64,000 bases of DNA. It comes from Blasia pusilla. Taxonomy: Eukaryota. The notes beneath the pieces are model-generated. The model ran no database searches. It saw nothing but the letters and a program-made list of their open reading frames with translations, and had not been told where the DNA came from. Location of the stretch: assembly GCA_050084515.1 (NCBI GenBank), contig CM114271.1:21824001-21888000 (forward strand), read 5' to 3'. Positions 11,467-46,200 of the stretch are shown one piece after another. Position 1 is the stretch's first letter. Every line of letters starts with the position of its first letter. A program made the position numbers and the translations under genes.

Positions 11467-14301
11467 ATGGAAGCCCCAGTTGCTGAAGTCAATGAGGCGC
11501 TCACAAGCTCGAGACCTACCTATGCGTTAAATCCTGATCAACTTTCACGCTATGTCGACTCGACTCCTTTCACCGAGGGAGAAATTTTAAATCTCCATAA
11601 AAAATTCCACGTACTTTCCCACTTCCCCTCTTAAGAAGAATTGAACAGGACTTCAAAAGAGAGAAACAAATATAATGATCATGACAATGAATTAGAGCTC
11701 ACAGAGTGATTGAATTCCCGTTGTGCACTCAGCCTTGCTTCTTAGAACCTGAGGTGGCAGACTATCAAATCTCCCGACATGGCGACCGGAAGTGATTGCA
11801 AAACGATCTTGATCTTCAGGAAGCAAGTCGTTTCTGATAATTGATGCAAGCACAACCCGCCCTCTCGAGCAGGTTAATTCAGTAAGACCGGTTGTCCACA
11901 GGGAGGAGGTCCAGAGAGTACTGCATTAGAGGTAGAGATTTAAATGGTTTGCTTGTAGGAAACCCTAGTTTGAAGACCGCGGTATTTCGTCCAATTGACA
12001 CCAACTACGATCCAATCTGTTTTAATTTCCCGGAAAAGAGCAGTTGCTGTTTCCTCGACCAAGGAGAGGCTTTCCTCCTTATCAGAAGCTCTGGAATTCT
12101 AGGTACAGCTCAGGAGCGTAGCCAACGATCGGACACCAATCCTCGCTCATATCACCGATGCTTGAAGACAGCCTTCGCCACGTCCCCCGCCTTCTTTCCA
12201 CTGATTCATCGCGCCCTTCTGATATCGCGTCAATGCGATGCCCATCTTACTTTTAAGGTGACCATGGGTAGGCTGAAAAAAATTCCGTAACAAGGTTTGA
12301 GCCTGGATTGGTATGAATCTATGAAAGTTGATTGCATAAACATCGATGAGTCATGAGAAATTGAGAAGCAGCGATAAGAATTTCAAAAATCTAAACATTC
12401 TTTTCCATGCAAATGAGAATATTATTCTTTTGAGGCGGGCTGATTGAACTGGAAACTTTCTGCATGTATGGCAGGAGCTGAGTCGAGATGGGCTGGACAG
12501 AATATTACACGACGAGCTGATTCAAGTCGAGCAGATGCGAGCAAATCCTTTCGCTTCTAGGATCTGTGAGTTGTTTAGCGAGGATGGCTCTGGAGTTCTC
12601 ACGTTTGAAAACTTCCTCAATATGATGTCGGTGTTTTCTCTTCACACTCGACCGGAAGTGAAAATGGTTTGGGCTTTTGCGATGTGGGACTTCGACGGCG
12701 ATGACGTCATCGGTCCTGGTAAGCTCTGCATCTCATCACATCTCATCTCCAGCTTTGACCTCCAGCCAACCTCAGTCGATCGCACTCCAACCCTTTTTTA
12801 TATGTGTGGTCCTGTACCTCAGGGATACGTAAAGAAGATCTTCTTCCACGATCAATAGTACTCGAGCGTTCTAGAGTTTATTTCATATGATTAAACAGAC
12901 TCCTCAAAAAAGTGACCTAGCAGGCAAGCCGAGAGTAGTGTCGGAAGGCAAATGAATGCCAGGAGAAAAGCTTAGTATATTCCTCATACAAACATACGAT
13001 CGCAGTGCCTTTTCTCCTGGCATTCAAAAAGTTCCCACTGTAACTTTCTAGTTCCTAGATCCGCAGCCTTTCTCTCTTCACTGGGAGCCTTGCGAGACTT
13101 GTAATTCGGTCCGTTTCTCTACTAACCTGACATAGATACAAGGGACGCTGCATGGTCCAAGCTGTCCAGAGAGTACTATTGTATCATCGATGCATGTTCT
13201 GAGTATAACTTGAAGTAGGACCCACATCGTTGCTCTCTCCACTTGGAGCCTTGCAAGACTTGTAATGTCGTCCGTTTCTTTAGTTACATACATAGGATAG
13301 ATATAAGGGACGCTCCATATGATCCAATTTGTCCAGATAGTACTACAGTATCAGTGATGCATGTGCACGTTTCCGACCCTGTAATTTGTTTCTACTTCTT
13401 CCTGCTTAGAGGGGGAAGTTCAAGATGGGGAGGAGCACCCCAAGCACAAGTGTTACGGGTCGAAAGACTGTTAGAATCCGAACACAACGGGAATAATTTT
13501 TAATCGCATGCATCTGTAAACATCAAGTCGTCCAAAATCAGTTAGAATGTTCCAAAGGGAGCAATTAAACACAGCATCATTTGATGAATTTATGAAGAGC
13601 TGGGGAGTGAGAAGTGTGTCAAGATGAGGTCGTGAAAGGCACGGTCTTAACGCCGTGCCTTTCCAGGGATCTCCCGTGGAATGCAGTAGTAAAGAAGGTC
13701 GTTCTCTTCTTGAAGTTCATGAACTGAGGACGTTGGTTCCATGAGAGCACTCGTGTAAACTAGGATTCTAGTGCATGTATGCAGATCTTCCACCATCATT
13801 GAAAGCATCTAACCCCGTCTACTAAAACTACCAATGAGGAAGACACACCTGAAAGCTCCACTGCGTATGCTCATGCACGTCCAGTGTTTACAGTAGGTCT
13901 ACGCTGGGGTCACCGTTTGACTTATCTAAAGTAAGGCCTACATTCTGTCCAGAGACTCTAGCTTCGATGAGGCACAAGAAGAGAAAAGCCAAACATAGAC
14001 TCTAGCTTCGATAGAGGCACAAGAAGTTGTAAGTCACTGACAGACGGCTCCGCGCGCAGGTGACATAAGGTATGGACTGAATCTAATAACCTGCTCTGGA
14101 GTTGCAATGAGCCCAAGCCTGAAGATTTTGACTCGAGTGCCTTCGGCCGCTGCGTTGGAAGACCATGAATTGGATGGCTTGGTGAATGAGGTTGTGAGAG
14201 AGTTGGACCCTGAGGGCTATGGTCTGGGCTATCACGACTTTCGGTCCATTCTTGCTCGTATGCCAGACTTTATTACCAACTTTCGCATGTCATTCTGGTA
14301 A
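11467..14301 (+). CDS. Calcium- and integrin-binding (CIB2/3-like) EF-hand protein; exons 11467-11610, 12475-12718, 14060-14301
   Basis: The exons join in frame: ..YVDSTPFTEGEILNLHKKFH|..MRANPFASRICELFSEDGSGVLTFENFLNMMSVFS..KMVWAFAMWDFDGDDVIGPG|DI..VVRELDPEGYGLGYHDFRSILARMPDFITNFRMSFW*. This matches CIB-family motifs (NPF..RI..FSEDG.G.LTF; C-terminal A..PDF..F.I). Confidence 0.85.
13074..13363 (+). repeat. Diverged ~160-bp direct duplication in CIB intron 2
   Basis: ggagccttgc(g/a)agacttgtaat..gtccgtttct..aagggacgct..tgtccaga(g/t)agtacta..gatgcatg occurs twice (~13075 and ~13235). Confidence 0.8.
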
Positions 14302-15399: not shown

Positions 15400-16100
15400 A
15401 TTTATATGATCCGAGGTTGTTAGTGGCATAGATGAGTTAGATCAGGAGAGGCTCGGGGTGAGTCTAAATGTTGACTGTGCGTGAGGCGGGGTGTGTCATC
15501 AGGGGATCAACATTAGCACGTAAGCTAGTGAGGAGTGTGGAGTGTGCTCAAGCACTCAGACTCTTCATGAATCTGAGTGCTTGAGCACGTGAGGCAGGGT
15601 TATCATTACGGCGTTCTTCTTGGGCTCGTGGTAGTTTGACCAATAATAGTGCAATTATACGGAGTGGAATGAGGTATGGAGGGGATTCGAGTGACGAACT
15701 TCCCCGACTTCAATCTGTGGTTGGATCGTCATCATTGGACAACGAGTCTAATGACAAGATTGTAGGCAGAGGCAATGACTCATCAAGAGAGATGGACGAC
15801 ATGAGCCACAAAAGCATGCGTCGTTTCTTGGGTGTGGTAGCCCCGGTAGGCACCATCGACTTAGATGATTTCATCCAGGATTTTGACATGTGGTATGATT
15901 TCCAGGAGATTCAAGCCCCTACATGATTAAACCTTCTAGGGTCGTGCGATGGATGATTATTGGGAGTTCCGGTGTTTACACACAGTATAGATTGATGCCT
16001 TGAAGGTGTATTGAGCTCTAGGATATGTATCCACTATTGATTGTGAGGCGTACAATGGGGTAGTGGGAGAGGATAGACCTACACCATTAACCCGGGGACT
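15400..16100 (+). mobile_element. Gypsy leader and 5' gag fragment (DNMT-bearing family)
   Basis: MDDMSHKSMRRFLGVVAPVGTIDLDDFIQDFDMWYDFQE is homologous to the gag start at ~22340. A perfect 17-bp hairpin lies at 15544-15588. Confidence 0.7.
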
Positions 16101-16104
16101 AGAT

Positions 16105-18830
16105 TATCATACGCATACACATCGCTGGTCACATCTACACACCATACAACATTGATATTCCCTACACACGGGTCGATCTACTTATAAATAAAATATACAC
16201 TCACGCCTATACATCGAGAGTCAAGACCACACAACAAAATCAGAGGAAAAAGGTCTCATTCGGTCTAAAACTCCACTTTTGAATCTATATTGGCATATCA
16301 AGCCACATCCACTCTCCGTTATGAGGGAATCCGGACGCTAGCACCTTAGTTTTTACATATACATGCAAGAGTGGTGCTCCTAAGGCCCAACATGACTTGG
16401 GAAAGCCATCTCTCCCTCTCGTTTAGCCTTGGGGGACGAGTCAAAAGGCTTTTTTGCCAAAAATAGCCATCCCACTGGTAACCTGCGTGCACAAGTTGTC
16501 GAGTGATCGTTGACTTGGTCAATAGGTCACCTGACTGACTAAGACCAAAATAGGGAAATATTTAGAGACAATGTTCCCAATGCAACGGGCATGTTGCCAA
16601 CCTCATCGGACATCTAAGAATATAGCTACACCCAAACCCCGCTAACCCTCTATGTTGTCGGCGCGATAGAACCCTATCTATCGACTAACTAAGATGTGAT
16701 AGTTGTTGTGCGCATACACATTGCTACAAAATCCAAGTCGTTGGTCACATCTACACACCACACAACGCCGATCTTCCCAACGCACGGGTTGATCCAATCA
16801 TATATGAAATATACGCTTACGCTTATACATCAAGACTACACAACCTTCCCTTAGCTGGTAGTTGGATCCCCCTAACTCCAGATAGTAGACATCGCATCTA
16901 CTTATTATCATCTACTACTCCATACACATTGGTGCCGTCATCCCGCCCCGCAACATCTCCCAACACATACTCTTATGTGGATCTCACTCATCTATCTCCA
17001 CCTAGAGATATCGATATATCCAAATTGATGTCATCTTGCAACATTATAGCTACCCACCCTTTTGGTTCCTCCAAAGAGATCTAACACTCTTGCATCCTCC
17101 TTTAGACGTTGCCACACAACAAGTGTAGTACTCAAAGATAACCAAATTGGAGTGTTTCGCTTAGTTAGTCCGACAAGTACACTGTATCACGCGTACGTAG
17201 CGCTTCCTACTTGATTCGGGATCGCAACCCTTGATATTAGGGAAGGCGGCATGTTTGGCATTGGGGTTATGGAAAGGTGACAGTGAGCCTTGTCCATTTC
17301 ACATACGTATAGACCTGTATTGGGGGTCTGTCATCCACACAATACATGACTCGACCTGAGTTAGTCGTTAGACTCCAACCAAAGCGAAACCCTGTAATTT
17401 GGTTATCTATCAACACTACACATGGTGTCATCATGGCTCGCTCTATCGTTGGCCTAGTTGGTACCTCTACCAACTTCGCCGCCGCAACATGCCATAACTA
17501 GGCGGGGGACATCCCAAGCACATGCTCTGAGGGCAGTTCCACCACCTCCTCACCAACCATCTCGGAACAAGAGGTTGTCATCTCTCCACGTACACTCACA
17601 CAACATGGTAGCCAACCAGAACATCTCCGTTGGTACAACTCTCATCGTCGCTAACTCCATGGCAAAAAACAACAGAGTCTGGCTCACTCTATTGGCCACC
17701 TCCAACAATGTGATCGATATAGGCTTCACCCGAGCCAGCATAGGAGTCATCTCACCAATTCTTTGTGATGTCGACGCACCTGCCTCACCTGTGGGCAGTA
17801 TAGGTCGTCTAGGCACCATCGATGGTATGTGCAGTGCCTCTAACAACAAAAATTACTGGGAACCCTGGCCTGTTGCCCATCACTTCCCTAATGTGGATTT
17901 ATCTTCACCCCACCTCCCAAGGGCTCAGTCACTTTCATAGCACCCCGAGTCACCACCGCAGCAACCTCTACGTGAGCCGCACAACACATAAACCTCAACC
18001 CTACATAATCCTCCCCTCTATCCTGATACAATATGGAGGCTCAAGCCACACTAGCTACCCTCGGCTTTGTGCTTGCCATTGGCTACATCATTGTCATGGC
18101 AGCCATCTTCTTCTCCAATTGATTGATATATGTCAAGAGCGATGTATCGGCTACACATCCTCCATCTATTCAGATTGGTGGTGGGACCCTACCACCATGA
18201 TTGTCAACTCCTTGATCTAAACCAACTCTCTTGCATCCAAGTCCTTGGCCTACTTATGGACGTAGCTTTTGGAAAGGATCAAAACACCTATCCCTAGTGT
18301 GACCTTATCGGTGACAATGGTCATACTACAACTATGGTGGGACCATCCTAAGTTGCTCCTAAACACTTAGAGGCACCCTAGGCCCTCTACCATGTTGTGG
18401 GCAGTCTCTCTACCTATGGGCCCCACCACACATCCAAAAAGCCATATTTGGTCCCTGTTGGGCAACGTATGTTGGTACGGGCGATTGCCTCATCGCCTCA
18501 CAATACCGGTCCTACTCTCTTGGCCTCACTAGTGCATGTTGGGGCATCTATGGGGCTACTCCTACTTGTGGACCCGTTGAATCTCGTGAAAATCTCATGG
18601 TCATCACTTGCTCCTTACACATTTTGAGCTAAATCCACTTATCTTGCACTCTCCTCCGTCATTCCCAATCCAGAACCCCGTACAAGTATTGAACTAAATA
18701 TGCTTCAATCACTCAATATGTGATGATCAGTTGCCGCATGCGCGTGAATGCCTCTCTCAAACTCTCACCCAATCTCCACCAAAACTCTTGCTAGAATCTT
18801 CAGCTTATCAATTCATACCTTGTGCATTAG
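16105..18830 (-). mobile_element. Copy A: internally deleted Gypsy derivative (gag, inverted protease piece, DNMT motif I/II remnant, PPT-like tract, short LTR-end units)
   Basis: The minus strand is colinear with 22755-25400. RVLDLFGG is at 17067-17090 and RYL*VEIDE at 16987-17013. The protease motif LLDSGSQPLILGK at ~17207 is on the plus strand. LTR-end units lie at ~16704-16845 and ~16105-16235. Confidence 0.75.
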
Positions 18831-19229
18831 TTCATTGGTTTTAGCGTGTTTTGGAATGGGGCAGTAGTGGTTTCACGTGGAGCAGCACAAATTGATTCTA
18901 GATGGGTATCACTTTGCAGAGCATACAAGATAACCTGCCAGGGCAGACATTGGGACATATCTCGAGTGCGATGGGATCGATATGGATCATCTAGGGGGCC
19001 AAGACTCTCAAGTTCTCCTTCTTTCTCAATCCCCATCTACAATCATGAAGAGGAGCCACTGGTTAGCCCCGTGAAATCTTTTGTACACGAACCGATGAGA
19101 GTTAGGAACATTTTTGTAAATGACAAGGCGGAAGAGATCATAGACTAGAATTTGTAGTTTAGGAAATCCAATGTAAACATCTGAATTGCAAATGGATTTC
19201 AATAAACGAATTTAAATGTGTTTCTCAAA

Positions 19230-20210
19230 CTTTTTTGCTATCAGTTTGAGTGCTTTTTGAGCTATCAGTTTCCGACTTACGAAAACTTGTATTTTTGGAA
19301 TACATGTATTTTTTTTCACACTGCCTCCAACTTATCAGATTTTGACAATTCGAAACTTTTCTTTTGCTATTCCATGTATGGTGTTCAGATGGTGTTTGTG
19401 ATAACCTATTCCTGCAACCTATCATATTCCAACAAGTTGCATGTTTGAATGTGGATTTCCTATCATTTCTTCATATGGATGTGAAGTTGTTTCCTGAAAT
19501 TTTGCAGTTGTCATGTCTTGCTACCTCTCGGATACCAACAGCTTGCAAGCAGTCTTTTTTTTTTCGTAATTCTTTCTTTTTTCTTAGCCTTGATGAGCCA
19601 TGTTTGTTTTCATTTTTTCTTCGTCTCATGTCTTGCAACGTGTCGGATTCCGACGGGTTGCATGTCTGAATGGAACCTGTGTGCTTCCTAGCATTTCTTC
19701 ATATGGATGTTTCTTTTTTCTTACATCATGCCTTGCAGCCTGTCAGATTCCGACGGGTTGCATGTCTGAATGGAACTTATGTGTTTCCTACCTTTCTCTG
19801 CCTTCACATGTATGTTATGTTCCTATTTCCTTCAATTTTTCAATGGCCATGTATTTCCTCTCATTATTTTCCTTGTTTGGATTTGGACGAGTTGCAGGTC
19901 TGGATGGAACCTCTGTGTTTATGATCCTTTCCGCATATGTATTTCTAGTTTTAGGGTAGAATTTTACAATGGTCATGTCTAACATGTCTAATTCCAAGAG
20001 GTTGCTTGTAGTGTCTCTAGTAACCTCGTTCATTCTTTTTTCTTACCCCCTTTTTCTTACATCCTATCATGCAATCCTTCAGATTCCGACAAGTTCCATG
20101 TTAGGATGATTTCCTTCTATTCATTTCATTCACTTTATTTTTTTTAATCATGTGTTGCTTCTACGTTTCTTCACTTTTGACGTCTTGCAACCTATCAGAT
20201 TCCGACTGGT
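19230..20210 (+). repeat. Degenerate T-rich tandem array with a recurring tcagattccgac(gggttgcatgtctgaatggaac) core
   Basis: The core recurs at ~19264, 19335, 19643, 19743, 20078 and 20195; the best-preserved pair is about 100 bp apart. Confidence 0.7.
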
Positions 20211-22299
20211 TAGTTTGGTGATTGCTTCTCTTTTCCTCTCAGTCCTTCCTTTTAGGCATTCTTGTTGGCTTCCTTAACTTTTAACATGTGTGTTTAAGCA
20301 CAATTCTAAACACCATCAACCTTCTACAGACTCCATATACCTATTCTTGAGCCAAGTCTTCTAACTCATTCGTGGCCTCCAAGTCTTCTGAGTCATTGTT
20401 GGAAATATTGCAATCCTTCACTTTCTATCAACTTCACCAAATCACCTCTCCTCTTTTTCAATTCCCTTATCTCCAAGACTATCATGATTGGTTGTTGAAT
20501 TCTGACAACGTATTGGGAATGAGGATGAGAGTCTTGGGCTAGAGCCCATAGTCAAAGTGTATTTTGAACGGCTTTGATTAGTTCTGTAGTGATAAAATCC
20601 CATCTCATGGATTTGCATTGATAAGATACCCTCCTTCCCTATAACATTGGCCTACACAAAGAGTGATTTAAGCATGTCTGAAGTGATCTCCACTATTCCA
20701 TCTTCACATCCTGATGTGAAAAATGATGTTAGTTTTTGCCCCAACCTGGTCCACTTGTTACTCTCTTCAAAACATTTCTGACTCTCATTCTGAGATCAAA
20801 GAGACTCTCATCCTCATTCCCAACCTTCTGGCATTTGAAGTAGAGGAGAAAATTCAAAAATGGTGAAAATTTTGAAGAGAGATTAAGGATTTTGTCTTTT
20901 TTAGAAGAGACACTCTCCTAAACCCTAGACCCTAAACCCTAAACCCTCTTCCTCTCCTCTCTTCTTCTCTCCTGCCAAAATACCAGCCCCCGGTCGGGGC
21001 ATGGGTGCATTAGGAGGAAGGGAGTGCATAAGGGCCCGTGTGAGCCCGCCTTCATGGGGAAAGAGGGATCGGCTCATGGGGAAGTGTGCCATGGGCAACC
21101 ACAGAGTTGGGTCATAGGTTCGGGAGCCAAAAGCTAGGAATCACGGGCAAACGGAGTTAGGAGTGTGTGGGCGTAAGGGCTACAGATAGAGACAAGGACT
21201 CACGCATGGAAAGGGTGCCTCTATGTGCATAGGGAGGCGTGCACCTAAGGTGTGAGTGTAGAATTCTGAAGGAAAAAGGAAGAGTTGTGGCATAAGGACG
21301 CTTGTTGCATGTGCCACTCGGGTGTACAAGGTAGGTGCAAGGAGTGGGAGTGAATTGAGGGTTGGGGTTGGGTGATTCTGCATAGGGAGGCGCACGTTGA
21401 TGCGTGTAAGGATAGAACGGGAAGAGTAGGGAGTAAGCGGGGCTAGTCAGGTGGCCCAAATAGCCGCGAGTTGAGCAAGAGATGGGAGGAGGCTATCACA
21501 CAGGTGCAGAGCAAGGAAGGAGACATGTAAGGGCGCCGCATAGTGCAACGTGCTTGCAAGAAGGGGGAGTTGCATAGGTCGTCGAGCTAGGGAGCGAGCA
21601 AGGAAGAGCTGCATACGTATTCTAAGTGGGCAACATGGTTGGTTGGAGGAAGTTGTGATAAACAGATAGACGAGATTGGATCCAGACCTGGTGATTCAAC
21701 AACTACTCAGTTAGTAAGGCAATACATGGTGGGATTCGTAGGAGGGGATGGAGTTAGACATTGGACCTGGTAGGACATAACAGGAATAGCCGGTCATTGG
21801 AGAACAACATGGTTGAGGGGAGTTGCAATTTTCCCGCATTAGTAGGACTTTTGAGAGCAGGTTTTGCCAATATGCATTTGCTACCTAGTTGGAGAGAGTT
21901 TGTGATGGAGTGTTACTAGTGGAGGCACACACGCTAATGTTGATGGATAGTCCACATCTATTGACGGGACGTTCGACGTGTTGTTCAAGGAGATTCTCGT
22001 GTTGTGGAGGTTATCGCTATGTGGAGCAAGAAATGTTGATTGTGCAATATATTGATGGCGAGCGTGTTCACATTATCCATTTGAGTCCCTTTAGCCCACA
22101 CTTGTCTCGTATTATTGAGGGTGTTGGGTATCGGGTAGAGCTTAGGCTATATTGGTGTAGTGATAAATGGCGAGTGTAGTCTCCTTGCATGTGTAGCATG
22201 TTGGTGGATATAATGCAGTTGCCCAAGTAGGGGTTGCATGTATGGCCCGAGAGAGTGTGTCAATAGCTTAGGTAAGCTAGTTTGGGAGGCTCAGGGTGA

Positions 22300-25200
22300 G
22301 CCCGAGTGTTAAGTGTGGGTGAGGCCAGATACGTCATCTGAGATGGACGATATGGGCCATGGAGGCATGCGTCATTTCTCGGGTGCCGTGGGTGCCATCA
22401 ACTTAGATGAATTCATCCGGAGTTTGACACATGGTACGACTTCTAGGAGATATATATGAGCTCCTACATGGTTCATCCTTTCATGGCGTGGAAGGGTTTG
22501 TTTCAGCATTTAGAGGGTCCTCCGATGGATGACTACATGGAGTTTCAGTCTTTATACTTAGTAGAGATTGATGCTTGGAGGATGTATTGGGCTCTAGGGT
22601 ATGTGTCCACTAGTGGCCACGAGGCATATGATGCAATTGTGAGAGGGGAGAGGCCTACACCATCACCCAGGGACTTGATGGAGAGGATGGGAGTGAGGAT
22701 GGTAAGGCGACAAAGTCCTTTTGTGCTAGAGGTTCACCCAATTTCAATCTTATAGTGGAGTTCTTTCAACAATTAGGGAGGAGCTATCTGGGCGTGCGGA
22801 CCGACAAGCTGAAGAGTCTACAAGATTTTCAACGGAGATCAGATAAGAGTCTGAGAGAGGCGTTCATGCACATACGGCAATTGATCATTGCCATATATGG
22901 AGTGACTCAGGCACAGTCAATGCACTTTTGGTACGGGGTGTTGGACCAAGAGCTACGAAGGAGAGTCTGAGATGCAATATTGCTTCACACTGAGAAGCCC
23001 ACATTGAAGGTGATCTTCGAGTTGTTTGATCGAGCGGGTAGAGCTCAACATGAAAGAGGAGTATGTGGTGACCACGGGATTTTCAGGGGATTCGATAGAT
23101 CCAAGGGATTCGACAGATCCATGAGTAGAAGTAGCCCCATAGGTACCCTAGCATGCACCAATACCGCGGGAACAAGCCAGTGGGCCAAAGGAGCAGGGCA
23201 GTTATTATGAGCCCATGAGGCAACAACCCGTATCGACATATGTTGGCCAATAGGGATTGGCTTGTTGGACCCATAGGCAGAGGGATTACCCACAGCATGG
23301 TAGAGGGTCTAGGGTGCCCCTGGGTATTCAGGAGCCACCTAGGATGGCCCCATCACAATTGTAGTGTGACCAATACCACCGATATGGTCACACTAGGGAT
23401 AGGTGTTTTGATCTTCGCGGACGGCTACGGCCAGAGGTAGGCCGAGGGCTTGGGGGCAAGAGAGTTGGTAGAGATCAAGGAGTTGATGATCATGGTGGTG
23501 GGGCTCCACCACGTACCACTCAAAGGAGATGGAGGATGTGCATCTGATGCAGCACTCCTCACTCGCATCGATGAATTGGAGCAGAGGATTGTTGCCATGG
23601 CGATGATGCAATTCGTGACAGGTACAAAGCCAAGGGTCGCTAGTATGGCTCTAGTCTCCACATTGTATCAGGATATGGGGAGTATTATGCATGCTTGAGG
23701 TTTATATGCAGTGCAGCTCAGGTCGAGGTTGTTGCGGTGATGACTCAGGGTGTTGCAAGAGTGATCAATCCATTGAGAGGTGGGGTGGAGATAGACCCAC
23801 AGGAGGGAACCAATGGGCAATAGGCTAGGGTTACCCAGTCGCTTCTGTTGTCTATGGCACTTCACATATTTTCAATGGTGCATAGACAATTAGTAGAGCC
23901 CATAGGTGAGATAGGTGCGTCCATATCACAAGGAGTTGGAAAGATGACTCCTATACCAGATATGGTGGAAGCAATGTTGACCATGTTAACGTTGTTGGAG
24001 GTGGCCACTAGGGTGAGCCATGCTCCGTTATTTTCCGTCATAGAGTTGGTAACAAAGGGAGTTGGACCAACAAAGGTGTTTTGGCTGGCCGCCACATTGT
24101 ATGAGTGTGGAGAGGTGGCTACCCCTTGTTCGGAGGTTCTTGTTTGAGGAGGCCATGGACCTACCCTAGGAGCATGTGCTCGAGATGTCCCCCACTCAAT
24201 CATAGCATGCTTTAGCAGCAAAGTTGGTGGATATGATCGCTAGGTCAGCAATAGAGCGAGCCATGATGACACTCGGTGTGGTGTTGTTAGAAAACTGAGT
24301 TGGAGTGTTTTACTTGGTTAGTCCTACGGGTATCGTGTACCACCCGCACCGCGTCCTACTTGATCCAAGAGCATAGCCCCTGATGTTGGGGAAGCTCGTG
24401 GAGAAGGCTATGTGTTTGGCATCAGGGTTATGGAAAGACGACATTGAGCCTTTTCCCTTTTAGATACAGAACTTTATTGGGGGTGTGTCAACTCCGTAGT
24501 TCATGACTCGACATAAGTTAGTTGTTAGACTCTAGCCCGAGCATAAGTCAGATAGTTTGATGGTGCGCACTTCGGCGATTATGATACCAACAGAGTGGTA
24601 TGATGTGTTGGTAGGGAGTACAATGTTGTACCCACTTGGTTTTATTCTTGATTTTTGGAGGAGATGGTTTCTTATTGGCCACGGTGGCAATTAGGTGATG
24701 GACAGGTGAACCATCTAGTGGTACAATTTGCGTAGTGGTGGTTGACCACATGATGATATATTGACCATGCTGGTAGCATTCATATGTGGTGTTAGTTGAC
24801 CAAGTGAGTTATCGGTGAGGAGCACCCATGCGGAGGACATTCCCATAGAAGATAGTCCCATGAAGAGACATGCCATTGTGGGTGTCTCTTCCCATGGTGC
24901 AAGGACTTCTTTACCGTTGTGGGTACAAGCCTAAAGTTATAGAGGAGTGGAGATGAGCTCATGAGGCAAGCGTGGAGCCGTGCTTGTGTCTTGGAGTAGA
25001 TAGGGTCAGTGATGGTCGTGTTCTTGGAATGGAGGGTTGATATCTTTGTATACCACTCTTGTTATGTGGCAGCCTCTGGATGAGGGTGTGAGAGTGTTAG
25101 ATCTCGTCGGATGGGATCAACACGGAAGGTAGTTGCGATGTTACAGTGTTGCGGGGATGACGGCACCGATGGTGCTAGATGTGTATAGAGTAGTAGATCA

Positions 25201-25550
25201 CATCATGTAAATGTGATGTCTGCTATTTGGGGTTAGGGGGACCCAACTTCCAGCTAGGAGGACGGTTGTGTGGTCTCGATGTATATGGGTGAGTATATTT
25301 CATTTATGAATGGATCAACCCGTCTGTTGGGAAGATCCATGTTGTGTGGTGTGTAGATGTGACTAGGGATGTGGATTTTGAAGCGATGTGTATGCGCACG
25401 ACAGTGTTGTGTGGTCTTGATGTATATGCATGAATGTATTTCGTTTATGAATGGATCTACCCGTGTATTGGGAAGATTAGTGTTGTGTGGAGTGTAAATG
25501 TGACTAGTAATATGGATTGTAATTCTTTACCAATGTGAATTGGCACGACA
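22300..25550 (+). mobile_element. Copy B: internally deleted Gypsy derivative (gag, protease, DNMT motif I remnant, PPT-like tract, doubled ~140-bp LTR-end unit)
   Basis: Gag (PFMAWKGLFQHLEGPPMDDY..FFQQLGRSYLGVRTDKLKSLQDFQR..FWYGVLDQELRRRV), protease VLLDPRA*PLMLGK (~24353, decayed DSGA), LYPLGFILDFW, and VRVLDLVG/GINT (25088-25125). Then aggaggacggt|tgtgtgg..gcacgaca occurs twice. Confidence 0.8.
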
Positions 25551-25559
25551 CCACCCTCC

Positions 25560-28500
25560 TCTTCTTCAGAGTCATGAGAGAGACTTGGAAGCCGATGATT
25601 GGTCCTAGGTTGACATGAGCGGTGAAGAGACGAGGTTCTTGTGGAAATTCAGGGACTGCTTTGCACAAAGTATGCAAGGTTGGCTGAAGGGTTCAAGTAT
25701 TTGGATCAAGTTGGATAGTGATACGCCTAACTTCTGAAGACCTTACATATCTTTTGATAGGGAGTGAGCCTTGATTCCATGTAGGAGTTGAGACTTGGTT
25801 GACATTGGACTGGTGGAGAGATCGCTTGGAGAGTATGCATCTGCCACAATTATGATGGCAACGAAGGACATGCATAATGGCTAGTGGATTGATAGGCGGA
25901 TGTCTGGGGATTAACGTCTTATCAATCGGCATACAAAGTCCAATCTCTATGCTATGCCTCATCCTGAGGAGATCTTTGATGACTTGGGGCATGCAAAGAT
26001 CTTCAATTTTTTGGATCTCTGTATTGGCTATCATTAGTTTCCCATCATGGTGGAAGACATGGAGGAGAAAGCATTTTGGGGGATAGATTCTTTCAGAAAG
26101 AATTGTTTGTACCAATGGCAGTTCTTACCATTTGGGTTGAAGAATACCCTTGTGGGTTTTCAACAAGTTATGGATAGGATTTTGGATAGTTTGGATTTAG
26201 CAAGATGTTATATCGATGAAATTATTGTCTTTAGTGCCACAATTGAGGCGCATGAGAGACATCTAGAGGAGGTATTTTGACCATTGTAGTTACATGGATT
26301 AAAGGTAGATCCATGCAAGTGCAAGTTCTTTCATGACCACATCGAGTATCTTGGACAAACCATTTATCCAGGGATAGTACAAATGTAAGTTAAGTTCGAG
26401 CTTTCATGGGATTGGGGAACTACTAACGACGCTACATGATCGAAGGGCTTTAGTGCGATTACGTAGGCATTGACTTTGCTTGACTAGGAGTGTTTTTGGG
26501 GAGATGATCAAGATCAAGCATTTCAAAAGCTGAAGGACATGTTGACATCCTCACCCAATTAAAGGCGACCTATGTGTGGTCGTCGATCTGTTCCAATAAC
26601 GTACGGATTGGAGTATGTTGGGATTAGGAGCGGTGCTCATTCAACGAGAGGATGAAGGCAAGGAGTTTAGAATGGGATATGTAAGTTGCTCAAACAAAAA
26701 TGTGGAGTCGAAGTACAATTCCTATGAAGGGGAGTACTTAGTTGAAGTGTGGACAATGGCCCATTTCAGATGTTATTTGTTTGAGAATCCTTTCAGGCTC
26801 ATCACTAATCATCAACCACTCAAATGGTTGATGGAGTGTGACAAACTCACAAGGATGCTTGCCTAATGGGCACTCTTATTGAAGGAGTATGATTTTCAGG
26901 TTATCCATCGCTCATGATATCTGAATTAGGATGCGGACGGATATCGGTTGAGCTATAACCCCTGTACAAGCCAGAGTGATGCAACATACTAGAGCTATGT
27001 GCCATGGTGAGAGTGATGAGGAGATGATGTTGGGTTGGCACGCATCTTCCTATTTATGTCAGTTGGCTATATTTGACAAGTAGGAGGCATCCACTCCAAG
27101 AGGGAGGTTAGATGGTGAGTTCTTAGATCCGGATGCTAGTGAGGAGTCGACAGGGACTCGAGAGATCCATGATGGTGAGATGATCTTAGAGTACCTATGC
27201 ACTGGTATATATCTAGGCAAGTACAGGGAGTGCTAGAGAGTGGGATCAATTCCTACAACAAGCCAGGAGGTTCAGGTGGGTGGAAAAGCATGTGCTTCCA
27301 GTTTGGAAGGCTAGACGAGTGTAGATGGTGTCATATCCTCCGCAACGAGCACGAGTCGTGAGATATGCTCACGAGGATTTTATCCATTTTGGAGTCAAGC
27401 ATATATATAGCTTGCTTAAAATTCATAATTGGTGGCGTGGTAAGCAAATTGATGTTCATCAGTTTGTAGTGAGATGCATCATATGTGACAGGATGCGAGT
27501 ATCGTTCAATGCTCTGACACCACACTTGCATCCTTTATCGATCATGGGATTAGGATATCACTAGAGTTTGGACTTTGCACGGCCTTTACCATTCCTGAGA
27601 TATATAGTAGTACATGTTGGTCATGGTGGGGCACTTCTCCAAGTGGATCGTGTTGGTAGCTTTGTCAGACATGTCAAGTGAGGGAGCGGTGTCGTGTCGA
27701 GAGCCTTTCTTTGAGTAAGGGCGGACCTTCTAGCTACAACAGATGTAATTAATGCAAATCAAACTCTATAAGAAGTTCTCCTTTTTTGGTACATAATTAT
27801 TATGTAAATCCTCCATTCTCTCACGACAAGAATCACGAATGGTAGTGCCGAGATAATCACTTCTTCATAATATGGAACCCCAAAATTCCTAACTATGAAG
27901 TCCCTGTAAACTACTTTACGTTTGTACACAAGGTAAATAGCACAACTAGTGTTAAACCCCACTCGAGCAAGCCTATTGATGTCCATGGATTGCTATATAA
28001 GGACACACAAAGTACAATCCCATGTCCTTCCTTATGTGACTATAGGAAGAATCACCGGAGTTGGAGATTGCATGACTTGGTTCATGAAAATCTCCCCAAT
28101 GTGATAAACTAGATAGTAAATGAACCAATGCCTATCTACAAAGAGAATTTTGATGTGGTATGGATTAAGGAAAGGAAAATCGGGGACAATTCGTGCTCCA
28201 TCCCTATCTGTACTTGACGGACATCCTCTACTCTCCTCTAGAATGGGGTTTGGCGGAGTTTCTCTCCCAAGAGGGGTAATCCATTCTCATTGGGAAAATA
28301 ATAAGCCAAACCATCCACTATTTCTAGTATGATTAAAATCCCCTAAGATGACAAGTATCGCATCTCCATACACACCACACTCTAGAATCCTTTCGAAGAA
28401 TAGATCATGGTCAAGTTACTCTCCCAAGAAAGATAATCCACTCTCATTGGAAGAGCAAGCAATCCCAAAGCCATCCACTCAAGAGTGACAGGAGAAACTC

Positions 28501-30070
28501 AATATGTGAAGTAGAAGGTGAAGAATCCTTGAAGGTCCCTCCTTTTTATATACTTACAAGGGATCCACAAGAATACAAAATAGGGCTAATCTTATCTTGT
28601 GCTACACGGCTTCCTCTCAAGACTTAACCAAACATATTTTGACACAAGTAGATTGCCTCTTATCTCTTCCAAAATATCCTCTTTTACTCATTTCATATCT
28701 TCCAAACTATCCTAACTACCCTAGCCACCAACCAAGACTACTTTTATTTTTCTTTTCATTAAAGCATCAACCCCACTACTTTACTTTTATAATCCCATAT
28801 TTTATTTATTACCTCTTTTCCTAAAGTTGGGCCCGTACAAATCAGCCACCCTAAAGAGGTTTAAACATATGAACTTCATTTTTCTAGGCTAATTTATTTA
28901 ATACTAATAAAACCTCTCTCTAACACTTAATGATAGATGAGTTTACATATTGGGTGATTTTATTATACGACAAGGGCTTATGCATTTCATGATTGTTTGA
29001 GTGTTTAGTCCTTTCAGTGCACCAATAGAGGCGTTGACAGACGAAGATATTGAGTTTAGGGATGACTTTCAAGCCTTATATGATCACGCGCTTCGAGATT
29101 ATTGTACATCTTCTCGAGATCATGCGGATGCAGGTGGTTTGGCAGAGAGAATTATACATGCAATGAAGAGAGGATTGCACAAGTTTGGTCTACAAAGAGC
29201 ACACTTAGGAGATTGAGACCTATAATTTTCATGATTGGTGATGGATTATCGCTTCCGTCGGCATGCATCATTGGCATCATTTTCACCATATTTCTTGCTC
29301 TATCGGAGAGAGCCAGATTTATCGTCAACTATTTGACAAGATGTGGTTGATGGAATCTCCGAATCCTTGGTCGATAGCCTCCTCCAAGCGTAGTTGCATA
29401 TCTCAGAATATCGCGATGTTAAGCAATAGCCCTCAAATATCATAGGCATTACTCTCCGAAAGAGCTCAATCCGTCGAGGATATGCTCGCACCCATACGTT
29501 TAGATTTTTTAGATCAAGTACCATCCTAGTAATTATGACTACCTAGAGCAAACGGTGCCAACACTATTTGACATGCATATGACTGTATGACGTACTATTC
29601 TATGAGTGCAAGAGATTTTACCTCCAAGAGTATTTTTTTTAGATGGTTATAATGGTACCGATTAGAAAGATCATGTGCGTAATTGTGCGCCATATCATCT
29701 TCCAAATATAGATAGTAGTATTGATCGGAGGATTGCAGTTGTTCCTTCAGGCTTGAGATGTGTGTAGTGTGGATCCGCCATAGGATCAGCCACAATGCTA
29801 GTTTGTGATGGATGTTCTTGAGGATAGCATATGTCGTGTTTGACGTTGCCTCTTGACTTGGTTCCTCATGGATGTTGGTTTTGTCCCAGATGTATATAAG
29901 TGTGATAGATAGATTATAAGATGACTCTTGATGTTATGGGTTGCATGAAGATGACTAATGATGGGGCGACATATCACCCGATCTCCTGATACTAGCACCG
30001 AAAAGATGCATAGTATTTAGATTTGTTTTGTAGGCTATCTGGAATTAGAGGGATCTAACCACCAACTACG
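25560..30070 (+). mobile_element. Copy D: Ty3/Gypsy pol remnant RT-RNaseH-integrase-PHD (pseudogenised, split by a solo LTR)
   Basis: RT: LYQWQFLPFGLKN..FQQVMDRIL..RCYIDEIIVFS (26209 YIDE). RNase H: LGLGAVLIQ..YNSYEGE..ITNHQPLKWL. Integrase: HEDFIHFG..CIICDR, SLDFARPL, GLAERIIHAMKRGL. PHD at 29759-29893. Integrase after RNase H is the Gypsy order. Confidence 0.9.
27690..28972 (-). mobile_element. Solo LTR inserted in the integrase of copy D
   Basis: TGTCGTGT..ATACGACA termini with an imperfect TSD (AGCGG vs AG-GG). Integrase reads ..DMSSEGA | AYAF.. across the insertion. A TATA-like tatataaaaagg is on the minus strand at ~28545. Confidence 0.8.
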
Positions 30071-30194
30071 GGTATGATTGGGATTATCCAATCATTCATG
30101 TGTAGATATGTGAGGATTCATAATTAGATGGATCTTAGACTTGTGGGCATGATTGCCGATGTATATTGCTAGCCATATCTTTTCGCACAATAAT

Positions 30195-30890
30195 TGTCAT
30201 GGTAGATGAGACATAGAGCGAGATAATATCGAGGCCTTAGAGGGGTCTTGTACTTCCTTATTTTAAGAGGTCATATATGACCTACAAGTTTAGGTCACCC
30301 TTCCTTTAGGATCCAGAGGAGTGGCAAGCTTGAAAAGGTTGACCCTCATATCTTTTGTGTGTAGCCACTTGGGCCTATATAGTTGGTCTCATGAGAGGAC
30401 CAAATGTGTAGTTGTTAGGGAGTTAGTATCTTGTATACTCCATCGTTGGTGACCTGCTAGGAAGAGGTTATATGTGTGTACAGATCATCCATGGAGATGC
30501 CCAAGGGGAATATGCCTCTTATGAAGCTCATTCAAAGCTCATCTTCCTTGGATCAAACCCATGTTGGGATCTGTGATATAGCGCAACTTGCATGTATTGA
30601 GTCTGGATTCTCTCTTAAATAGTGGATTAGGATTGATTGGAGATCACACAAATGAAGAGTATATTTCAAACTTTCTCCTATTGTTACCGCAATGTGTATC
30701 ATTGAGTGGATGTTTAGATGAATCATAGTTGATTGCAAGTTTCATTAAGTTTCACATTCCATATCAACTTTGTATTGGGGTTTGCCCAACTGTTCATGTG
30801 TACGTATGTTAGGATTCATAGTTAGATGGATCTTAGACTTGTGTGCATGACCATCGATGTATGTTGATAGTGATATCTATTTGCACGACA
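30195..30890 (+). mobile_element. LTR (probable 3' LTR of copy D)
   Basis: TGTCATG..CACGACA termini and homology to 950-1589. Its last ~120 bp are also present at ~30075-30191. No TSD is seen. Confidence 0.7.
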
Positions 30891-32099
30891 AAGTAGTCAT
30901 AAAAATCTTATATATAAGATACTTATGTGAAAATAGAAAACTATGAGATTTGAAGGTCTTCTCATTGTGGTCAGTTTTATCCTATATATGATTATAATAG
31001 ATTATATATATATATATATATATATATGAATTTAATTTCAAACACTCTCATAGACTTGGACTTGGAAATTATAGAATTTCCATCCTTATATCTGCCCACG
31101 TACTCTCACCTTGGACAGACAGAAAGATGAGTGTCAAGGGAGTTGTGGCAATATGGGTAGAAAAAAAATAGGGGGCAACTAGAAGAGTAGTGGATCAAGG
31201 TGGATGGGACACAACATGGTGATGAATAAAATATGAGTTGGTCGAGGAAAATCTTTTGCAATGTGATAGGAGTTACGCGCTTCTAACAAGCATCCTTATC
31301 TAAATAGTAGTATGACAATTATTCTCACTCTTTGGTTAAGTTTGATAATGGACTCTCAACGTCCCAATTTTTTTGCTCCATATCAATAATTACAATAAGA
31401 GGGACTTTTGTGGGAAGGTGTTTGTCTCACCTCCACAATGAGCACAAAAGAGGAATACAAGGAGTATGATTGATCAGATTAAAGTCCAACAACTATCAAT
31501 AGAGGCCTAGAGTTCTCGAGATATATGTAGGGGGTGATTTTACCCTAAATATTATTACATAGATATTTACAGAACCACTAACCACACCTGTATTTTATAT
31601 ACCTCTATAATCAATAAAAATAATTGTATAATTGAACATATTTGTACATGAAACCCAATTCCATGGGATATGTGATATATGAAAAAGTATATTTATTTTT
31701 ACTTATAACATTCCTAAGAATTCTATCCCATGCAATGACTTTGCAAATTTCAAACAAAGGATGTTAAGAGTGCAATTTGTTCATGTTAGACTAGGGCGAG
31801 GATGTAAAAAAAACTCAACTTTGGAGTCACACCGTGTTTCTAAATTCTGCATTCTTCTAAATTTTCCTTTATTAAAAAAATTGAAACCTTAGAAAGAAAG
31901 GTAGGTTAGGCAATTGAATTGTCTCCAATCCAATCGAACATATCAATGTAGTGCCAAAATGCTTCTACGACTCCGCGTAGTAGAAAAATTCAGATGTTTA
32001 CAACTCTATTTTCAGTGAAATGAAAGTGTGCCTATAAAATCCATATCTACCTCTTTGTTCACAATTAGTTCATACAACGCAAACATATAGTTCATACAA

Positions 32100-35000
32100 C
32101 TCCTATTCATATAAAAGTTTTCCAATCTCATGAATATAAAAACTCGACTCACATCTGTAGAGCATGGAATGCATGAGATAGCCTCTCCTTTGTCTGCTGC
32201 ATACGAATGCTTCTTGGGTATATTGTATGACCCAAGTACTCAACGTGGTCGTAGAAGAACTTGCACTTGCCATGATGTAGCTTGAGCCCATGTAATTCCA
32301 ATGGTTGAAACACCTCCTCCAAATGTCACTCATACTCCTCAACTGTTACACTAAAGACTATGATATCATCAATATAATATCTCGCAAAATCCAGACCTGC
32401 CAAGATCCTATCCATGACCCTCTGAAATTATGCCCTGAAGTTCTTTAATCCAAATGATAAGAACCATCAATGGTATAAATAATCTTTCCCATGGGGATGG
32501 ATGCCCCAAAATATAATTTTCTTCATGTCCTCCAATATGACAGGCAGCTTATGATATATGGCTCGGACATCCAATGAACTCAAGATCTTTGCATGCCCTA
32601 AAACATCAAAGATCTCTTGAGGAATGGGAATGGCATACCTATCTCCATATTAAAGCCCTCCATATCATTGTACCTGTAGGATCGTCGAAAGATCGACTTG
32701 TCGCTAGAAAACTTAATGGGGATCCCTATACCGGGAACTTCACTCAAGAAAAGCCTCAACCTCTAGGGTAGTTCTCCGATTGGAACTATAGTTCCGAATG
32801 TTCCTACCCTTTAGGGTATCCGAATCATACATACTAAATACAAAATAGCTCTTATGACTCAAACTGAACTAATTTATCCAGTGATGATCTCCTCTTCTGA
32901 ACTTAGGGTCCATATATGGCTCCCAAGTCTTCATCGTGACTAATACAGGACTCTCTAGCACGGGTATCTATGATTTCTGTAGTGCAATCTCATCTCGAAC
33001 AACACAACTTAATTGCTCCGCTACAGGAAACTTCGCACTCTCCTCTCCTCTATGTGCGATACCATGTATCATGCTCGATGTTATGGTTGCCATCTCCCAG
33101 CATACTTATAAGACATCCCAAGAAGTCCAAGAGTGTCTCTCACGATCATCCTTGATATATCAATCTCCTCGGATCTTACCCTTGGCTACTATCAAAACCG
33201 TCTAGGTGGGCATGGAGCTCAAAGGTGCAATTGCAATAATCTTTTGTAACCTCATCCGACGCTACTTAGATACTGCTAAGCTGAGAATCCATGTCAAGGA
33301 GTTTCGTTTGATTGCCTAGACCAAGACTTGACGTTGAGATACCTCCAATATTTCTAGTATTGCCGTCATTCCTAGGAGAACCCCATCACTCGCTGTGACT
33401 TATTGGCATTGAGCTCCACCAATCGTTATACATGGTCAATATATGCATAAGAAGCAGAAAAACAAACAAATGTAGGAAAGGTTGTCCATGGCATGGCAAT
33501 TCTGTTGACCACTGTTAATAGAGAGCGATCATCGTGCCTCACTGCCTATGATTGTCGTCTTGGATCCAAAATAGAATCCACTAAAAGATGGGAGGGATGC
33601 TCAACTCGCACATATGCCTTCCTTAAGATCTCATGCAGAACCAAGTTGGTCCACCATAGATACGGGCGATGTGCTCATGGCCCTACACTCATTGCATCCA
33701 AGAAAATTGCATGGTCGATTCATACACGCACCTCATGTGCACTCGTCACCACTTGTGACCACGCATCACCCAAGATCGATAATTAATATTCCTCCAAATT
33801 TCACAAAATCCTCATCATCTTTTAAAATAGCCTCAATCGTGTATTAACTAATCCACTACCTTCTTCAATATTTGATTGGCCGCAACTTGGCCAACTTGGA
33901 TCTATATCTGCTCCAAGTCGTACGCCTCAACAAAGAAATATCCCTCATTAAGGAACTCTCGTACCCTTGTATGGCCGGCACATACAACAAGTCTGGAAAA
34001 TATTGGCATTATTACACCACATGTCGTAGTGAGATGCGCCTCGCAACCTCATCAAGATCCACATATAAGTAATGTTGCACACGCACTGTTGCGTGTAAAA
34101 CAACAACTAACCCAATGATGATCCCTCCAAACACATCCAACACTTGAATACTCTCCTCTGGGATGCATCCCACAATGCGTGTGGTATCCCAGGGTGACAT
34201 CATAGCACTCTCGCCTACCTCAATTTCGTGTGACCCATCACACTTTGGTGCAAATGCCTCGAGCCATCTACACGTGCCCATCAACCAAGCGTCAAAGCTC
34301 CTCACTTGAGCTCCACAAATGGATGACCCTTGGAATGTGAGGCAGAGACACCATTCCCGCGCTCACATAATGTAGCGGCTAGCTGGAAAACCTCTGTGGG
34401 CATACCTCCCAACATCGTAACATTGGAACTAAAAATTATGGGGTGTTGTACATAGCAATGTCCGCCTCCAACAACGTACTTGATACGGGCTTCTCTTAAG
34501 TACCAGCAATAGAAGTCTTCGCCCATAGTGCCTGCATACGAATAGTATCCACTCTTCGAGAACTTTAATCAAGACTCATCGATGGGATCCTCATCACCTT
34601 GGAAAAAGTAAAAGATTAAGGAAGCTTGGTTTGATTCCTGGCTTTTCCTCTCTGTGGATCCAACTCTAGGGATGCTCCACGTGTAAAAACAATGGCTGCC
34701 TCCATCTGTGCAACCTCACATATCCAACAAGGATTCTCCAAATCTTTGGTTGCACCATGTAATGTCAATGCCACTAATCTGCAGCAAGTAACCTCAATAC
34801 CATCGCGCCAATTCGCTATTGCAAGTGCTCTATGTGAGAGCCATCCCAACCTCACATCCTAAGTCTCCCTCGACTCGTCTAGGTGACATACCTCTACCTC
34901 CTATACGAGCAAATTCACCACCCCACAAGAAAATCTAGCTCCCACTCACTCTACTAGACCACTTTGTGCATGGCATGTAGGCCCACTCTGTGGCCTCGGT

Positions 35001-45049: not shown

Positions 45050-46200
45050 ATCATGTAGAGAGTTAGTAGAGAGAGAGTACATTAGTGCTTCACATGAGTA
45101 ATGACCTATCATCGGAAGGTGACATGTGTACACAAGTCACCCATGGAAGTGCCCAAGGGGCACTCATTGAAGCTCATTTTGTGACTTATCGTTCTATTAC
45201 GATATCCAGAGACACATTAGAGTGGAGATCTCATGTGATGCATGGATTCACTTATGTTTAGGATGGTCTAGAATTGTATACAAAGACAAGATTGTTACAT
45301 ATTTATGTGCATCTTTTTCACATCTAAATCATGTATGAGTGTTGGAGTGTCCCAAATTGCTAAGTCGTTGTCGCCTACGCTAGTGGGGACTTGGGAAGCA
45401 AGTCATGACTGTGGATCAAAGAAGGAGAGAACTTGGTGTGATCCACGCTAGTTGAAACCCAAACTAACTAGTTCGAGACTATTAAGGCCGGCCGAACGAG
45501 TTGTGGGAATAACGCTAGTCTAGAAGGGTACAATACCCTAAAATATTTTCTTGCTATCCCGTTACCATGTGTTAAGCATAGAGGTGTTTGCAAAACAAGA
45601 AGTTATCCTCCCTTGAAGTTGACATATGCATGTGATGTATCGCGCATATACATATTAACATCATGTGCACACATATAGTAGCAATTGAAACACAACATAA
45701 TAAATGATAGATTGGGAAATCACACTCCAAATCATACACAAGACCAACACATCTAAACCCTAACCTATGATTGGAAGGTTCAATCATAGACAAATGAACC
45801 TCTCCAAACTCTCCATATAGTAGCAATTGAAACACAACATAATAAATGATAGATTGGGAAATCACACTCCAAATCGTACACAAGACCAACACATCTAAAC
45901 CCTATCCTATGATTGGAAGGTTCAATCATAGACAAATGAACCTCTCCAAACTCTCCATATAAAATCACCACTTGTCCAACTTCTAGGGTGACCTATGCAC
46001 ATAGATCTCCCAAACAAGTAACCAAAACCCAACAATTCTTCCCATTGTCTCTCATGAACTTCCCCATAACCTCCTCACCAGATCCAAGAGACTATATTTA
46101 CACTTGGTGTCATTAATAAGACACCAACATGCCACCATCACCAACTAGCCTCTCTACACACATGGAGCTCCTTTGTCGACTTTACTATCTCATCCAACTA
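45050..46200. mobile_element. Cluster of LTR-like fragments in both orientations
   Basis: cacccatggaagtgcccaagggg..aagctcatt (~45140, +) and gggtgacctatgcacatagatctccc (~45986) resemble the LTR family at 950-1589 and 30195-30890. Confidence 0.5.
45672..45960 (+). repeat. Near-perfect 142-bp tandem duplication
   Basis: catatagtagcaattgaaac.. starts at 45672 and 45814, with 2 visible mismatches. Confidence 0.9.

Follow-up and report, generated by a model that had tools for sequence, protein, structure and literature searches.

A pseudogenised PHD finger at the end of pol in a dead Ty3/Gypsy element of Blasia pusilla, and relatives that join it to a DNMT3-like methyltransferase

The PHD finger and the element that ends in it

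A stretch of 64,000 nucleotides (nt) of the Blasia pusilla genome (assembly GCA_050084515.1, contig CM114271.1, positions 21,824,001 to 21,888,000 of the forward strand), here called the window, contains an old dead Ty3/Gypsy retrotransposon copy at positions 22342–29899, termed copy D. It runs from gag to a PHD finger, and this finger forms the C-terminus of its pol. The finger is of the Cys4-His-Cys3 (C4HC3) type, is pseudogenised, and lies as the final pol domain at 29759–29896 on the plus strand. A TAA stop codon at 29897–29899, one codon past the last Cys pair, closes pol; relatives of the same type end 2–14 residues past the last Cys of their PHD finger.

A translation with X placed at stops gives the ligand spacing C-x2-C-x11-C-x2-C-x4-H-x2-C-x14-C-x2-C (29759–29893, plus strand). 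All eight zinc ligands are kept with the canonical Cys4-His-Cys3 spacing, and a Trp is found two residues ahead of the seventh Cys. A preliminary description of the window had named a canonical C4HC3 finger with a Trp ahead of the last Cys pair, interrupted by three stops. Translation and a pattern scan bear this out, and the stops are placed at 29765–29767 (TAG), 29819–29821 (TGA) and 29825–29827 (TAG), none of them on a zinc-ligand codon. The Pfam profile PF00628, which the same description had proposed to run on the read-through translation, scores 34.1 bits (E = 2.7e-8; gathering score 24) and aligns over its full length, positions 1–47 of 47. With its coding sequence broken by three in-frame stops, the finger in the window is an inert relic.

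Three stops and the lack of an open frame are what would be expected if the motif were a chance pattern or a fragment of an adjacent host gene. This explanation is refuted by the Pfam score above threshold, by colinearity with the pol of relatives down to the last residues, and by the presence of the same junction in 81 relatives. In addition, a C4HC3 regular expression finds this single site in the six frames of the window, and 200 windows simulated with a first-order Markov model contain it in no case.

The body of copy D can be followed with proteins of related elements, given here by P numbers. P0008, a protein of 1083 amino acids with the order reverse transcriptase (RT)-RNase H-integrase-PHD, is colinear with copy D: residues 90–776 correspond to 25654–27694 and residues 782–1080 to 29001–29893. 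Because this colinearity extends across both halves of the integrase, the PHD finger is the genuine end of one pol. Residues 467–590 of P0005, which consist of the integrase C-terminal domain and the PHD finger, share 52% identity with 29516–29893 (tblastn). The order protease, RT, RNase H, integrase, found with Pfam and tblastn, is that of Ty3/Gypsy elements.

On the plus strand, the gag region is situated at 22342–24138 (tblastn, P0012 residues 2–565) and the aspartic protease region at 24206–24729 (tblastn, P0012 residues 586–757 and P0020 residues 99–270). The RT, with 13 in-frame stops, occupies 25654–26637 (Pfam RVT_1, 68.6 bits; tblastn, P0008 residues 90–433) and RNase H occupies 26591–26986 (Pfam RT_RNaseH, 74 bits; tblastn, P0008 residues 424–549, 60% identity). 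The integrase zinc-binding domain and the first half of the catalytic core follow at 27238–27694 (Pfam Integrase_H2C2, 34.3 bits; tblastn, P0008 residues 624–776). The core is then split by about 1.3 kb of unrelated DNA at 27695–29000, across which P0008 jumps from residue 776 at 27694 to residue 782 at 29001. The second half of the core is present at 29001–29345 (tblastn, P0005 residues 294–408, 56.5% identity). The piece between the core and the C-terminal domain, at about 29346–29530, is inverted in place, since residues 408–469 of P0005 and 934–959 of P0008 are matched on the minus strand only. The beta-barrel C-terminal domain of the integrase and a linker of about 20 residues to the PHD finger complete the chain at 29516–29758 (tblastn, P0005 residues 467–590, P0008 residues 957–1080, P0026 residues 2221–2344). 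Thus the placement of the finger at the 3′ end of pol after the integrase, as first described, stands by the P0005 alignment, but the integrase leading to it is not continuous.

In the 928 codons of copy D's pol there are 30 in-frame stops; the observed/expected CpG ratio is 0.52. The Pfam Chromo family shows no match in the three forward frames of 23000–30003 at E ≤ 0.1. Copy D lacks the chromodomain that marks chromoviruses; at the integrase C-terminus a PHD finger takes its place.

Several observations concern the disrupted integrase region itself. The inverted piece forms an open minus-strand frame of 80 residues (29300–29542) with stop-rich flanks on the plus strand. The insert at 27695–29000 carries a duplication of 63–66 nt (28257–28319 and 28414–28479), and its block 28636–28830 is repeated at 63228–63403 with 82% identity. 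Integrase-like motifs seen by eye inside the insert were rejected, as it shows no Pfam family and no match among 185 stored proteins. An arrangement with a complete integrase at 27500–28330 and a second, foreign fragment at 29001–29900 was rejected on the colinearity of P0008 and P0005 across the 1.3 kb gap.

Between protease and RT, copy D contains no match to the body of a DNA methyltransferase (DNMT), represented by residues 271–712 of P0020 (tblastn). A remnant is present at 24731–25111 (plus strand), which covers the protease-to-DNMT linker and the first residues of DNMT motif I (BLASTP, P0025 residues 587–701; P0015 residues 829–858). The alignment with P0025, a Sphagnum protein, reaches the start of motif I, with E = 4e-6 for the pair. 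Copy D therefore descends from a DNMT-bearing element, and its own DNMT is deleted past the first motif. The DNMT-body position is taken by a non-coding stretch at 25147–25520 (plus strand) that contains a 141 nt tandem duplication; the stretch is related to the 3′ block of copy D (30004–30199) and to 16697–16955 on the minus strand, in a further copy of the family, copy B.

Methyltransferase, integrase and PHD finger in relatives and neighbouring copies

A search with the integrase piece 29001–29510 yields 10 homologues. Six of these carry a PHD finger, five of the six with the integrase core (rve) as well; P0008 and proteins from Marchantia polymorpha and Sphagnum fallax are among the PHD-bearing ones. 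In P0007, a Marchantia gene model, the N-terminal part is DNMT-like and the end is integrase-PHD; the N-terminal part matches another copy in the window, copy C, on the minus strand (tblastn). When this N-terminal part is used as query, 27 proteins are found, many of them Marchantia models with the Pfam DNA_methylase domain; the 27 also contain six long polyproteins, with DNA_methylase, RT, RNase H, integrase and PHD among their precomputed domains.

All five of these domains are called by Pfam in one protein in P0026, P0028, P0032 and P0037. Two arrangements are seen. Type I has the order protease-DNMT-RT-RNase H-integrase-PHD (P0026), and type II has the order RT-RNase H-DNMT-integrase-PHD (P0028, P0032, P0037). 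Intact members of the lineage hold protease, DNMT3-like cytosine methyltransferase, RT, RNase H, integrase and PHD finger in one polyprotein.

A wider set was obtained by a phmmer search of P0008 against 1.84 billion cluster representatives (50% identity). Of the best 150 clusters 148 were new, and these 148 nearest clusters were annotated with family-specific hidden Markov models (HMMs) built from members of the family. The integrase C-terminal domain is followed by a PHD finger in 66 of them, and in 50 of the 148 a DNMT-like region is found in the same protein. These comprise 40 clusters with the order RT-RNase H-DNMT-integrase-PHD, six with DNMT-RT-RNase H-integrase-PHD and four N-terminally cut forms with DNMT and PHD. 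A further 13 show RT-RNase H-integrase-PHD with no DNMT seen; several of these begin just ahead of the RT and may be merely cut. P0075 and P0125, however, are long and keep the PHD finger, and no DNMT-like region is detected in them upstream of or within pol (for P0075 also by Pfam). The remaining nearest clusters are mostly concatenated models of ordinary Gypsy elements.

Among the 185 stored relatives, 81 contain the junction of integrase C-terminal domain and PHD finger, and the full C4HC3 set is present in 77 of the 81. The finger follows the integrase C-terminal domain whether the DNMT precedes the RT or sits between RNase H and integrase. Relatives with a named host come from Marchantia, Riccia, Sphagnum and Closterium sp. 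NIES-54. Type II proteins (P0028, P0032, P0037, P0044 and 43 others) come from environmental assemblies and mostly continue for 100–500 further residues past the PHD finger; in P0044 this tail shows no Pfam family. A different order, RNase H-PHD-integrase ("type IV"), is found in P0151 and four more proteins. In the Gypsy polyprotein P0151, gag and protease precede a Dam adenine methyltransferase (47 bits), and RT, RNase H, PHD and integrase follow it.

The DNMT of the Marchantia proteins has its best solved matches in the catalytic domains of DNMT3A, DNMT3B and DNMT3C (E = 2e-6), and the alignment takes in motif I, the Pro-Cys of motif IV and the Glu-Asn-Val of motif VI. Of 22 type I and 55 type II domains aligned, most retain the Cys of motif IV and the Glu-Asn of motif VI, with a few exceptions. 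Types I and II also have in common a Trp ahead of motif IV and a later motif that ends in Trp-Thr-Asn, and these shared residues hint that both DNMT placements may go back to one common origin.

The RTs were compared in a quick IQ-TREE analysis of 90 RT rows, with support given by the Shimodaira-Hasegawa-like approximate likelihood ratio test (SH-aLRT) only; the RT of copy C fills 43% of the columns. The RTs of copies D and C are sisters (SH-aLRT 98) and group with P0008 and P0039 (SH-aLRT 99), beside the DNMT-bearing P0062, P0064 and P0026. Type II proteins form a separate RT clade of 51 rows (SH-aLRT 99). Given two DNMT places in pol, two RT clades and one integrase-PHD junction, the DNMT would have been either captured repeatedly or moved within a PHD-bearing ancestor.

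The preliminary description had proposed that the family pairs a histone reader with a DNA-methylation writer, and that this would fail if PHD-bearing and DNMT-bearing elements fell in separate RT clades and never met in one element. Such a separation is not seen, as the PHD-bearing copy D and the DNMT-bearing copy C are sisters, and single proteins with both domains exist, four by Pfam and 50 of the 148 nearest clusters by the family HMMs. At the level of the family the pairing is supported, with histone reading as its putative part.

Copy C consists of gag, DNMT and RT and then ends; RNase H, integrase and PHD finger are all absent. Its DNMT3-like domain is found upstream of the RT at 34323–33007 on the minus strand (tblastn, P0012 residues 862–1278, P0020 residues 321–694, P0026 residues 952–1238), and its RT at 32646–32111 on the same strand (Pfam RVT_1, 55.6 bits; tblastn). 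A simple scan for PCQ and ENV motifs gave no DNMT in copy C, and the domain becomes visible only with proteins of the family. The RTs of copies C and D share 72% nt identity (blastn), and identity between copies is about 72%. Copy B, at 15792–18790, consists of scrambled gag and protease fragments of the same family on both strands (tblastn, P0012 and P0015; blastn to copy D, 67–80%).

Past pol of copy D, a 3′ non-coding block at 30004–30199 (plus strand) aligns locally to 16697–16913 on the minus strand. It includes a 33-mer (30035–30067) with related copies at 16853–16885 in copy B (minus strand, 5 mismatches in 33) and at 25223–25255 in copy D itself (plus strand, 9 mismatches). The block had been described as common to copies A and B; this is correct for copy B, at 16853–16885, but for copy A no convincing counterpart is found at the start of the window.

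By its content the window belongs to a plant-like genome and is made up of genes and repeats. A 600 nt repeat with 70% identity, which starts 300 nt past the end of pol, is found at 30196–30775 and at 967–1588 (minus strand), and may represent either a terminal region of the family or a different element. A 63 nt unit is repeated at least 17 times across 56711–57897, its copies 60–90% alike, with an open frame of 167 residues at 56974–57477. Two tandem 142 nt copies at 45672–45955 share 99% identity and are far younger than the other repeats of the window. Host-gene exons lie at 12448–12855 (plus strand) and 51280–51660 (minus strand), with weak EF-hand matches below the Pfam cutoffs and a nucleotide-diphospho-sugar transferase match (50 bits). 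With 446 residues, the frame at 60084–61424 (plus strand) is the longest open one in the window. It shows no Pfam family at E ≤ 0.01, and its assignment by eye as the end of a Mutator-like (MULE-type) transposase was dropped for want of Pfam support.

What the finger may read and what it may serve

The PHD finger of the relative P0004 was searched with phmmer against the PDB. The best solved matches include the fingers of CHD4, MLL3, PHF12, KDM5B and KDM5A (PHD1), DPF3 and PHF21A, and further those of ATXR5, KAT6A, UHRF1, AIRE and BAZ2A/B. The likeness to histone-tail readers spans the whole domain, with E-values down to 1e-18. The solved fingers nearest to that of P0004 are readers of the unmodified H3 tail, and the family finger most likely fits this subclass (AIRE, BHC80/PHF21A, CHD4, KDM5 PHD1, DPF3), as judged from its residues.

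Fingers of the PHD class that read trimethylated histone H3 lysine 4 (H3K4me3) do exist, and in 45 of 77 family members a Trp adjoins the zinc-binding His, so the finger might instead read methylated H3K4 and steer integration to active promoters. In H3K4me3 readers, however, the cage Trp stands two residues ahead of this His. In the family, 69 of the 77 fingers, and the one in the window as well, carry a Gly at this position. No classic H3K4me3 reader appears by name among the 60 PDB matches listed for P0004, with ING, BPTF and TAF3 all missing from these. A promoter-seeking finger is thus highly improbable.

The AlphaFold model of P0004 (mean predicted local distance difference test score, pLDDT, 80.5) displays an integrase core, a long helix, a five-strand beta domain (residues 270–320) and then the finger (pLDDT 84–90). 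In a fold search the model matches the integrases of prototype foamy virus (PFV) and Ty3; integrases dominate this search, which does not inform on the class of the PHD finger. Some PHD-like fingers bind partners other than histones, and the domain could serve the integrase as a zinc module, structural or for binding protein or nucleic acid, without any part in histone recognition. The whole-domain likeness to bona fide histone-tail readers speaks against this, and it is considered quite unlikely.

The best account of these observations takes the finger in the window as the pseudogenised integrase PHD of a dead element of the Gypsy-DNMT3 type, with a proposed tether role in live relatives; the probability of this explanation is put at about 0.7. 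The identity of the domain, its position at the end of pol, its conservation in the lineage and its occurrence beside a DNMT are established by the analysis. In live elements the finger is predicted to be retained on the mature integrase and would dock the integration complex on nucleosomes, much as the chromodomain does in chromoviruses. The docking sites would be nucleosomes whose H3 tail is not methylated at K4, away from active promoters, where the DNMT would go on to methylate the new copy or DNA around it. For the specific step in which the finger stays on the mature integrase and tethers the complex to H3K4-unmethylated nucleosomes, suggested by domain order and residues, the odds are about even.

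The place of the finger after the integrase is constant wherever the DNMT lies, and persists without a DNMT, so the finger would serve the integrase and not the DNMT. The opposite assignment has a model in animals. In DNMT3A, DNMT3B and DNMT3L the ADD domain, a PHD-type finger that reads unmethylated H3K4 (H3K4me0), is paired with the DNMT3 catalytic domain. By analogy, the finger of the Gypsy elements could serve the methyltransferase. As part of an uncleaved polyprotein or a complex, it would bring or release the enzyme on chromatin with unmethylated H3K4, and reader and writer would then form a single machine. DNMT and finger occur together in the 50 clusters noted above, the DNMT is DNMT3-like and the finger resembles readers of unmodified H3, all of which would fit. 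However, ADD adjoins the catalytic domain in one mature protein and gates catalysis, whereas here the finger is on the integrase and the DNMT is distant in the polyprotein. The finger is always found directly past the integrase C-terminal domain and never next to the DNMT, with RT, RNase H or integrase between them, and P0075 and P0125 keep it with no DNMT-like region detected. A finger that serves the methyltransferase is therefore unlikely, although it is the chief alternative to the integrase tether.

Several points weigh against the integrase-tether explanation in a DNMT-bearing lineage. Within the window, no copy holds DNMT and PHD finger together. No direct repeat pair of long terminal repeats (LTRs) is found between 18800–22400 and 29890–33500 even at word size 7; the copy is old. 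Copy D may be a chimera of two copies, its integrase halves being 1.3 kb apart. The decayed copy C gives no Pfam DNA_methylase match at E ≤ 0.1, Pfam calls no DNMT in P0044, and the DNMT of P0071 falls just below the Pfam cutoff (20.5 against 22 bits); with these missed by Pfam, many DNMT calls come from the family HMMs. Many type II proteins have Glu-Cys in place of Pro-Cys at motif IV; in 20 of the 55 type II domains the motif is Gly-Trp-Glu-Cys-Gln-Asp, with Glu at the conserved Pro of C5 methyltransferases and with the Cys and the motif VI Glu-Asn retained. DNMT activity is not assured for this reason. The putative reader role is drawn from sequence likeness.

A broader reading, held tentatively and judged doubtful as a whole, sees in these elements a large old Ty3/Gypsy clade with a complete epigenetic kit of reader and writer. 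A PHD finger for unmodified H3K4, fused to the integrase, and a DNMT3-like methyltransferase would together choose and methylate H3K4-unmethylated chromatin, in hosts that extend from environmental eukaryotes to charophytes, liverworts and mosses. If true, the kit would follow the same logic as host DNMT3, with its ADD and catalytic domains, but split over two pol products.

Comparison with known elements

Gypsy elements with a DNMT3 domain (KnitGypsy-Dnmt3) are described in the charophyte Klebsormidium nitens (de Mendoza et al., 2018; PMC5890265). Compared by published description only, they resemble the present family in a DNMT3-like, non-rearranged methyltransferase inside a Ty3/Gypsy pol and in a streptophyte host. 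The host is K. nitens, whereas the relatives found here occur in Marchantia, Riccia, Sphagnum and Closterium. A further difference is that "PHD" does not occur in the main text and legends of PMC5890265, although its figure images and supplements may show such a finger. That article places the acquisition of DNMT3 "in the K. nitens lineage", and its Fig. 4 legend gives DIRS-like repeats for the K. nitens relatives. The name "streptophyte Gypsy-DNMT3" is used in a preprint (bioRxiv 10.64898/2026.05.21.726589), which also reports other elements that join methyltransferases to a chromodomain, and LTR elements with adenine methylases; its main text makes no mention of a PHD finger. The retrotransposons of Cymbomonas and Euglena, as far as their published description goes, likewise combine DNA-methylation writers with a histone reader. 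Their reader, however, is a chromodomain and their DNMT is sister to DNMT4, while in the present family a PHD finger accompanies a DNMT3-like enzyme.

In chromoviruses the chromodomain at the integrase C-terminus directs integration (Gao et al., 2008, as cited in PMC6673714). The likeness to the present elements lies in a small histone-reader domain directly past the integrase C-terminal domain; the difference lies in the domain, chromodomain there and PHD finger here, and in the likely mark, H3K9 methylation there and unmodified H3K4 here.

PHD fingers in retrotransposons are already known, that of REM1 of Chlamydomonas among them (Perez-Alegre, 2005, as cited in PMC6673714 and PMC8557442). 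What the Chlamydomonas elements have in common with the present family is that an LTR-retrotransposon pol of the green lineage carries a PHD finger as an accessory domain. In Gypsy-7a_cRei of Chlamydomonas the order is RT, RNase H, PHD, integrase (PMC9940879). There the finger stands ahead of the integrase, as in the five type IV relatives, P0151 included, and unlike the family described here, and the available description reports no DNMT.

In the accessible parts of the literature no description was found of a post-integrase PHD finger in a DNMT-bearing Gypsy element, though the figures or supplements of PMC5890265 may show one, and likewise none of DNMT-bearing Gypsy elements in liverworts or mosses. 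Thus Gypsy-DNMT3 elements and PHD fingers in algal retrotransposons are known, and what seems new here is the PHD finger past the integrase together with a DNMT.

A conserved PHD finger on the integrase offers a concrete, testable handle on how the DNMTs of retrotransposons are aimed and what use they have, and on whether such elements select silent, H3K4-unmethylated chromatin and then mark it. If the proposed role is true, these elements would stand beside the chromoviruses as a second independent case in which a histone reader tethers the integrase. With their occurrence in liverworts and mosses, the range of DNMT-bearing Gypsy elements would widen from one charophyte to land plants, among which Marchantia has both genetics and chromatin maps to offer.

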